From: a virus
Lineage: Duplodnaviria > Heunggongvirae > Uroviricota > Caudoviricetes
IMG/VR virus record: IMGVR_UViG_2531839661_000013
Coordinates: 1-9,877 of that record
Length of the DNA stretch: 9,877 bases
Strand: one strand, 5' to 3'
In this document: in pieces, positions 6,294-6,804 of the stretch
How positions within the stretch are numbered: the stretch's first letter is position 1
How the letters are laid out: the number at the start of each line of letters is the position of its first letter
Translations under genes and position numbers: made by a program
Notes under the pieces: model-generated
Seen by the model: the letters and a program-made list of their open reading frames with translations, nothing else
Told to the model about the DNA's origin: nothing
Databases searched by the model: none

Positions 6294-6542
6294 ATGCGCA
6301 GAGACAGAACAGAGCCGAAATATAAAGCGTTAGACATGACAGAGCACGCCTTAAAGGTGGCAATCAGGGTAATAGACCGCCACGCGGGGGAAGGATACGC
6401 GAAGGAGCATCCCGAACTGATAAGCGCATTCATGACCACAGCGGCGGCAAACTTTGCCACGTTGACAGAACGGGAGATTGCCGAAGCGGAACAGGTAACA
6501 ACCATCAACGTAAAAACCGGAGAGTCAGGCGATGATACATGA
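6294..6542 (+). CDS. hypothetical protein (82 aa from ATG 6294; the track uses GTG 6267)
   Basis: Strong RBS GAGGAG (6279-6284) 9 nt before ATG 6294. No recognisable motif. Confidence 0.5.
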   Translation: MRRDRTEPKYKALDMTEHALKVAIRVIDRHAGEGYAKEHPELISAFMTTAAANFATLTEREIAEAEQVTTINVKTGESGDDT

Positions 6543-6804
6543 CCGCATAGCGGAGGAACTCGAGGCGAAAGGATTTTACCGGAGGGCGGCGGCGCGATGG
6601 GGTGAAGTCATGCAGCTGGTGGAGACAGACAAGGAACGGCATCAGGTTACGATGCGACGGCTGGAATGTTCCAGGAAGGCACAGAGGCCACCGGAGCCGC
6701 CGGATAACTTCGGAGACCTGAGAAAGGCAGTAGATCGCACTTATGCTGAAATGGGTATAGATGGTGTAAGCGATGAAATATGGTGTAATTACCAAGACAG
6801 CTAA
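6532..6804 (+). CDS. PerC-family transcriptional regulator-like protein
   Basis: 90 aa. N-terminus MIHDRIAEELEAKGFYRRAAARWGEVMQL resembles the PerC/Pch N-terminal pattern (AExLExxGxxRRAAxRW) as I recall it. RBS GGAGAG 7 nt upstream; start overlaps the upstream gene. Confidence 0.55.
   Translation: MIHDRIAEELEAKGFYRRAAARWGEVMQLVETDKERHQVTMRRLECSRKAQRPPEPPDNFGDLRKAVDRTYAEMGIDGVSDEIWCNYQDS

Follow-up and report, generated by a model that had tools for sequence, protein, structure and literature searches.

The small gene perC in the stretch of DNA analyzed here (the window, 9,877 nucleotides) is probably swappable cargo and not a built-in switch for the capsid gene that follows it. The account that we regard as the likelier one is that perC is a group-3, PchE-type cargo gene that occupies a variable slot between the replication and packaging modules of a cos PICI, and that its product would be directed at the host through protein partners, with no obligatory role as an activator of the capsid gene. 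In sister islands with otherwise the same capsid block, this slot holds other genes or nothing. The feature itself is ordinary and already known: it is annotated in RefSeq, its family link is routine, PICI alleles of PerC were reported in 2018, and a PchE protein 94% identical to it has been studied. The useful outcome is a corrected reading of the region, in which perC is exchangeable cargo and a cos site lies behind it.

perC and its host island

The genome of E. coli strain 10 contains a segment with 99.4% identity to the window; there, a ~10-kb island lies between tRNA-Pro/yejM and yejO, with tRNA-Pro located 219 nt upstream of the integrase gene. Copies of a candidate att core, ATACGTTT(A/G)GTTATACG, are found outside both ends of the window (positions 11921-11937 and 22163-22191 of the strain 10 locus, L001); one copy lies between tRNA-Pro and the integrase gene, two overlapping copies follow the last island gene, and the span between the candidate repeats is ~10.3 kb. 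The gene order is integrase, AlpA-like HTH regulator, Icd-like and small ORFs, DUF4222, RepA, iterons, ORF 6267-6542, perC, a 648-bp spacer, the capsid fusion, and a 93-aa ORF (Table 1). The iterons lie directly 3' of the rep gene, which is where PICI origins are located (PMC6092414). The element has the integrase, the rep gene of its own, the position of the iterons, the size (about 10-15 kb is the usual range), and the lack of lysis and tail genes that are used to recognize a PICI, its match to AlpA being weak, and it carries two copies of a helper-like cos site. The full capsid and packaging set of a capsid-forming PICI (capsid, protease, portal, connectors, HNH, TerS, and TerL) is not present; no portal or terminase ORFs were found in the window, only the fusion of protease and major capsid protein (MCP). 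The host element is thus, judging by its gene content, a ~10-kb cos-type E. coli PICI at tRNA-Pro. The preliminary description had placed the gene inside a satellite, and the integrase, RepA, iterons, capsid fusion, and cos sites within this ~10-kb island bear that out.

Table 1. Features of the host island, with positions in the window
Feature	Position	Strand	Evidence
Tyrosine integrase, left end	1-1242	+	PF00589, PF22022, PF13356; NF007246, 555.8 bits
AlpA-like HTH regulator, weak match	1739-1945	+	PF05930 Phage_AlpA, E=0.003, 17.8 bits against a cut-off of 21; RefSeq 'helix-turn-helix transcriptional regulator'
RepA-family replicative helicase (AAA_25)	4673-6082	+	PF13481, E=1.6e-43; RefSeq 'helicase RepA family protein'
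Iterons of the replication origin (AAAGTGAGG-type, either orientation)	6081-6285		Repeat search and sequence reading; 35-41% GC
Upstream ORF	6267-6542	+	RefSeq hypothetical; three further E. coli PICI types have it at 86-90% aa identity
perC / pchE-type gene, 90 aa	6532-6804	+	PF06069, 147.8 bits; 94% aa identity to PA20 PchE
cos1, lambda-like cosQ and nick site/left half of cosN	6823-6900		Near-identical repeat of 9360-9436; lambda junction alignment; cosQ CGGGTCCT at 6835-6842; ACG|GGGCGG at 6863-6871
Small conserved ORF, 75 aa from first ATG, core about 59-64 aa	7229-7456	+	Overlap of its stop with the start of the capsid gene
ClpP-like prohead protease / major capsid protein fusion	7453-9342	+	NF045540, 891 bits; PF25209, PF00574
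cos2, second cosQ/cosN block	9360-9436		CGGGTCCT at 9372-9379; ACGGGGCGG at 9400-9408
Terminal 93-aa ORF	9596-9877	+	81-97% aa identity in L002 (O157:H7), L004 (EcCI042/CFT073 type), and L087 (O103:H2 strain 129)

No homolog of Rpp, the packaging-redirection protein of EcCI042, was found in the window; the Rpp of the EcCI042/CFT073-type island was located at L004:12073-12507 through a match to PDB 6HLK (E=4.5e-31). The terminal 93-aa ORF was considered as a candidate Rpp and rejected on homology comparison. It is common to all four E. coli island types compared, is always the last gene before the chromosomal flank, and gave no match in Pfam or the PDB.

Two further observations concern the left part of the window. 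The leftward small-gene region between the AlpA-like and Icd-like genes contains a 75-nt direct repeat (2260-2334 and 2833-2907; 83% identical, 573 nt apart), with shorter repeats close by (2498-2556; 2560-2575 and 3192-3207). An Rfam scan of the whole window at E<=1 returned only sub-threshold matches at chance level, none of them in or beside perC; one, to SymR (3197-3270, minus strand; 25.9 bits against a gathering threshold of 61, E=0.18), falls at the junction of a YlcI/YnfO-family gene and the Icd-like gene and probably arose by chance.

The perC gene is an ATG-started ORF of 90 codons' worth of protein (90 aa), preceded by a Shine-Dalgarno sequence, GGAGAG, at 6519-6524, 7 nt 5' of the start. 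Its start overlaps the end of ORF 6267-6542 (stop codon at 6540-6542) by 11 nt, and the two genes are likely to be cotranscribed and translationally coupled; a Pfam search with the product of the upstream ORF gave no match. A profile search, the check on family membership that the preliminary description had proposed, matched the perC product to Pfam family PF06069 (PerC) with E=1.2e-43 and 147.8 bits against a cut-off of 22.6, residues 1-89 aligning with positions 1-89 of the 90-position model. This end-to-end match is far above chance level, and the identification of a PerC-like regulator at this place is confirmed. The protein has the ~90-aa size of the family and all of the family-wide conserved residues (L10, E11, G14, R17, R18, A19, R22, W23, and C46), defined as those invariant or nearly so in alignments of 59 and 65 PerC-family members. 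RefSeq labels it 'PerC family transcriptional regulator' (WP_000581018.1). Of 5426 complete E. coli genomes, 946 have a relative of the gene at the DNA level, and its dN/dS of 0.18-0.46 against two alleles, a figure with few substitutions behind it, points to purifying selection.

Within the family, the gene is an allele of PchE, a group-3 PerC homolog. O157:H7 strain 20R2R, which derives from PA20, has a single copy, with 97% DNA identity to the window gene; the window protein shares 94% of residues with PA20 PchE, both being 90 aa long, and 91% with the allele of E. coli 042. The published pchE primers (Table S2, PMC6265319) have exact matches in the O157:H7 locus (L002, 10972-10991 and 11262-11283), where they flank the ORF at 11001-11273. 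We assign the window gene to PchE because of this protein identity and because the primers flank the PA20 ORF; in addition, one database relative of the window protein is labelled PchE by its source. Identity to the group-1 Pch-like and plasmid PerC genes is about 36-47%, that to group-1 Pch being about 36-40%.

The packaging site and the small gene next to the capsid gene

The spacer behind perC opens with a ~78-nt core (6823-6900), of which a near-exact copy follows the capsid gene, so that two copies flank that gene. About 2,255 E. coli genomes share this core. Lambdoid cos phages, mEp460 among them, carry a match to the block at the ends of their genomes; in CP-1639 the match is located between the Rz and terminase genes. 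When aligned to the joined ends of lambda, both copies have the cosQ-region CGGGTCCT and ACG|GGGCGG at lambda-like spacing, and their cosB sides are unrelated to lambda. EcCICFT073 has likewise been reported to carry cos1 and cos2 with phage-like cosQ/cosN and a different cosB (PMC6739421). Because of the lambda-like cosQ/cosN, the matches to phage genome ends, and this precedent, the start of the conserved block (about 6823-6900) is a packaging site, and we see in it no evidence for a promoter controlled by PerC. Promoter, terminator, and sRNA were considered as identities of the block and rejected. The preliminary description had set perC between the origin and a conserved intergenic block that precedes the capsid gene: the location stands, with the qualifications that ORF 6267-6542 also lies between the origin and perC and that the first part of the block is cos, with no obvious promoter region.

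A search of 6000-7500 gave no consensus sigma-70 promoter, and no terminator was found on the plus strand between perC and the capsid gene; the capsid gene could therefore be expressed by read-through from the upstream operon.

What always accompanies the capsid gene is ORF 7229-7456, a small gene missing from the RefSeq annotation of strain 10, the closest genome. It has 12 database homologs; homologs that are 39-70% identical lie directly 5' of the capsid fusion in islands of Kluyvera (two islands), Yersinia, Buttiauxella, Moellerella, and Rahnella, and the ORF is 100% identical in the PerC-less island of E. coli O103:H2 strain 129. This pattern marks ORF 7229-7456 as the gene that is truly conserved together with the capsid gene. 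Its conserved motif is VHIDAxTMxKIExYQ...PVPTKGQIxRSxVxYW. Neither a Pfam search nor a fold search gave a match for it; an AF2 model of moderate confidence (pLDDT 68.6) has an extended segment followed by two helices, and we conjecture, from the order of secondary-structure elements only, that the product might be a ribbon-helix-helix protein.

Probable exchange of perC among sister islands

In E. coli, PerC was found in the same slot of three PICI architectures whose packaging modules are unrelated: this island with its protease-MCP fusion, the EcCI042/CFT073 type (MCP, decoration protein, and Rpp), and the capsid-forming EcCIEDL933 type. The cassette formed by ORF 6267-6542 and perC shows 86-94% protein identity among the PICI types, while the rep genes show only 46-80%, a mosaic pattern suggesting that the cassette has been exchanged by recombination. 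The island of E. coli O103:H2 strain 129 (L087) aligns with window positions 6811-9877 at 97% identity, beginning 7 nt past the perC stop, which puts the breakpoint between the two islands at 6811. The shared block comprises cos1, the small ORF, the capsid fusion, cos2, and the 93-aa ORF; the part upstream of it consists of a primase gene, a small ORF, and an SSB gene, the last in the place of perC, and the PerC HMM found no PerC-like ORF in this island even at E<=1. The same island (about 780-10700 of L087) splits the terminase large-subunit (gpA-type) gene of a prophage into two parts (1-615 and 11033-12163), and the interrupted prophage has a protease-MCP fusion of its own, with about 65% DNA identity to the capsid gene of the island.

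The idea that PerC accompanies the capsid fusion across species was rejected, since none of 77 loci with relatives of the fusion from other species had PerC within 8 kb, in a search in which the E. coli controls scored 150 bits. Six of these loci are PICI-like sister islands with primase/RepA, Icd, or integrase (the islands of the five genera named above); all six have retained the small capsid-coupled ORF, and ahead of it the slot is empty or taken up by unrelated small genes. Divergent PerC proteins with no adjacent capsid gene were found in a Salmonella island (AntA-DUF4222-Ash-primase-ProQ-PerC), in a Pantoea island (primase...SSB-PerC), and in the accessory-gene region of a P22-like prophage. 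The Pantoea island also has a second, shorter PerC-like ORF right after its ProQ gene (L085, 4082-4273, plus strand; HMM E=1.4e-12). A role of plasmid PerC in establishment, from a position next to ssb in conjugative leading regions, was considered and dropped; in the two plasmids inspected, PerC lies in IS-rich virulence regions or beside an HTH gene.

These comparisons bear directly on the proposal of the preliminary description that perC activates the capsid operon. In its fuller form, the proposal is that PerC, made from the end of the replication operon, switches on the packaging operon of its own island late or frees it from silencing: in the AT-rich stretch that precedes both the small ORF and the capsid gene, it would either counteract H-NS or turn on a promoter. 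The position of perC directly 5' of the packaging module in all three E. coli architectures is in keeping with this, as are the 27-34% GC of 6900-7000 and 7100-7250, which is typical of an H-NS substrate, the anti-silencing action of group-1 Pch (PMC4764244), and the absence of a consensus sigma-70 promoter, which fits a promoter that depends on an activator. However, the 97%-identical block with cos sites and capsid gene exists without PerC in strain 129, the six sister islands of other genera have kept the capsid-coupled small ORF and not PerC, and PerC occurs in islands without capsid genes; moreover, read-through would suffice for expression where no plus-strand terminator intervenes, and part of the conserved block is cos and not a promoter. 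We therefore consider the proposal unlikely. It is weakened and not removed, because other PerC/Pch copies elsewhere in those genomes could act in trans.

Another role, which we hold to be quite unlikely, is that PerC acts on the helper phage and not on host genes, hindering or aiding gene expression of a lambdoid helper. Interference genes are common near the packaging module of PICIs (PMC6092414, PMC6739421), another factor could take the role of the usual interference/packaging protein Rpp that this island does not have, and group-1 pch genes are located in lambdoid prophages (PMC6265319). Against this, we found no experimental hint of any PerC protein acting on phage genes, the sister islands without PerC have the same cos and capsid block, and virulence plasmids also carry PerC, in IS-rich virulence regions that have nothing to do with phages. 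It is more improbable still that PerC is an accessory of the replication module, working with SSB or ProQ in replication or nucleic-acid handling after induction: the recurrent order of primase/helicase, small ORF, SSB or ProQ, and PerC, the frequent stop/start overlaps, and the closer similarity of the small ORF-perC cassette than of the neighboring rep genes would suit such a function, but PerC and SSB appear to be independent because each occurs without the other (PerC in the window, SSB in strain 129), PerC in the P22-like prophage and on plasmids lies away from any replication genes, and its fold carries no nucleic-acid-binding signal.

PerC as a probable host-directed protein and its known relatives

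The AF2 model of PerC (pLDDT 83.8) is all helical. A Foldseek search of the model against the PDB returned nothing with E<1 and no match of the HTH or RHH type, a sequence search against the PDB returned nothing below E=0.2, and no nucleic-acid-binding signal was found in the fold. With the NCBIfam ANR model NF033650, the window protein scores 17.7 bits (E=0.0023), below the cut-off of 32, residues 7-52 aligning with positions 9-54 of the 54-position model. The same model is matched over residues ~7-52 by 54 of 65 PerC-family members, with a best E of 4e-9, and some PF06069 proteins carry the NCBI name 'ANR family'. The kinship of PerC and ANR is thus real at the level of the family, with the window protein itself below the NCBI membership threshold. 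The prediction is of a TPR-like bundle of helices, akin to the ANR anti-activators and without a DNA-binding fold, which suggests that PerC acts via protein partners, such as H-NS complexes.

What has been published on PchE agrees with the host target that the preliminary description gave as one of its options. Over-expressed PchE, 94% identical to the window protein, repressed csgD/curli, biofilm formation, and adhesion to HEp-2 cells and raised flagella (PMC6265319, PMC7369912). These phenotypes were obtained by over-expression from a plasmid; deletion of pchE left adhesion and biofilm unchanged (PMC6265319, PMC7369912). SOS induction lowers pchE mRNA (PMC6265319, PMC7369912). Group-1 Pch proteins activate LEE1 by relieving silencing by H-NS/StpA/Hha/YdgT (PMC4764244), while PchE does not activate LEE1 (PMC6265319) and LEE1 fusions did not respond to the EDL933 and CFT073 PICI alleles (PMC11773190, citing Porter 2005). 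Because PchE and these PICI alleles have little or no effect on LEE1, the name 'activator' is not supported for this subgroup, whose closest relatives were negative in the published tests. The literature search turned up no experiment on a part of perC in how a PICI is induced, packaged, or transferred.

Taken with the ANR homology, the predicted fold, and the data on group-1 Pch, the best-supported reading is that PerC would modulate the host through protein partners. The first ~50 residues would form a TPR-like three-helix unit homologous to the ANR anti-activators; the protein would bind host regulatory proteins, either H-NS/StpA/Hha nucleoprotein complexes, as group-1 Pch does, or AraC-type activators, as ANR proteins do; and this binding would re-tune surface and motility genes of the host while the island is resident. 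Several points speak against host-directed cargo: the pchE deletion without a change in adhesion or biofilm, the derivation of the H-NS mechanism from group-1 Pch, which is about 36-40% identical, and the ANR score below the cut-off. That three types of E. coli PICI keep the gene in one slot, directly ahead of the packaging module, would equally be explained by a role in the life cycle of the island.

Primase-type satellites of Enterobacterales often carry regulators of the PerC/ANR type, which may serve the satellite or only the host. We speculate, as a long shot, that such proteins could be a general tool with which enterobacterial satellites manage xenogeneic silencing or host behavior for their own spread. 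In one version, PerC would lift H-NS silencing of the AT-rich late region after induction, other PerC/Pch copies being redundant with it; in another, it would shift the host from an adherent to a motile, flagellated state and so change its exposure to helper phages.

Among the known systems, the ANR proteins (Aar-type, NF033650) resemble PerC in being small, helical, and without a DNA-binding fold, and they act by binding AraC-type activators and H-NS (summarized in PMC11773190); PerC of the window differs from them in having ~40 additional C-terminal residues (with a helix at 60-74) beyond the 54-position model. PerC of the EPEC plasmid (BfpW) and PchA/B/C of EHEC, which form group 1, share PF06069 and the conserved residues with the window protein and are likewise small, helical, and borne on mobile elements. 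They differ in their identity of about 36-47% and in activating LEE1/ler by relief from H-NS, which group-3 PchE and the PICI alleles do not.

The PICI EcCIMP1 encodes another member of the PerC family, EcCIMP1_025, which its authors regard as an accessory gene and which represses LEE1; they proposed an ANR-like function for it (PMC11773190). It is about 40% identical to alleles of the EDL933/CFT073 type (PMC11773190), and the EcCIMP1 island has no capsid gene; its layout is matched by the AntA-Ash-primase-ProQ-PerC order of the Salmonella island. PerC variants in some E. coli PICIs had already been noted by Fillol-Salom et al. in 2018 (PMC6092414), who also described the plan of E. coli cos-type PICIs. 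Islands of the EcCICFT073/EcCI042 type follow the same plan as the window, with int, AlpA-like HTH, Icd-like, DUF4222, rep and iterons, small ORF, PerC, capsid homolog, 93-aa ORF, and two cos sites. The window island differs from them in having no Rpp, no separate decoration protein, and no SSB; protease and MCP are fused in its capsid gene, and the small ORF in front of that gene is a different one.

PchE of O157:H7 is encoded between roxA and phoQ, in a PICI of the capsid-forming EcCIEDL933 type. That island has a full capsid, portal, and terminase module, whereas the window island, at ~10 kb and tRNA-Pro, has RepA, no SSB, and a single protease-capsid fusion; in both, a 90-aa PerC protein is encoded in the same slot, after the replication module and a small upstream ORF and before the packaging module.
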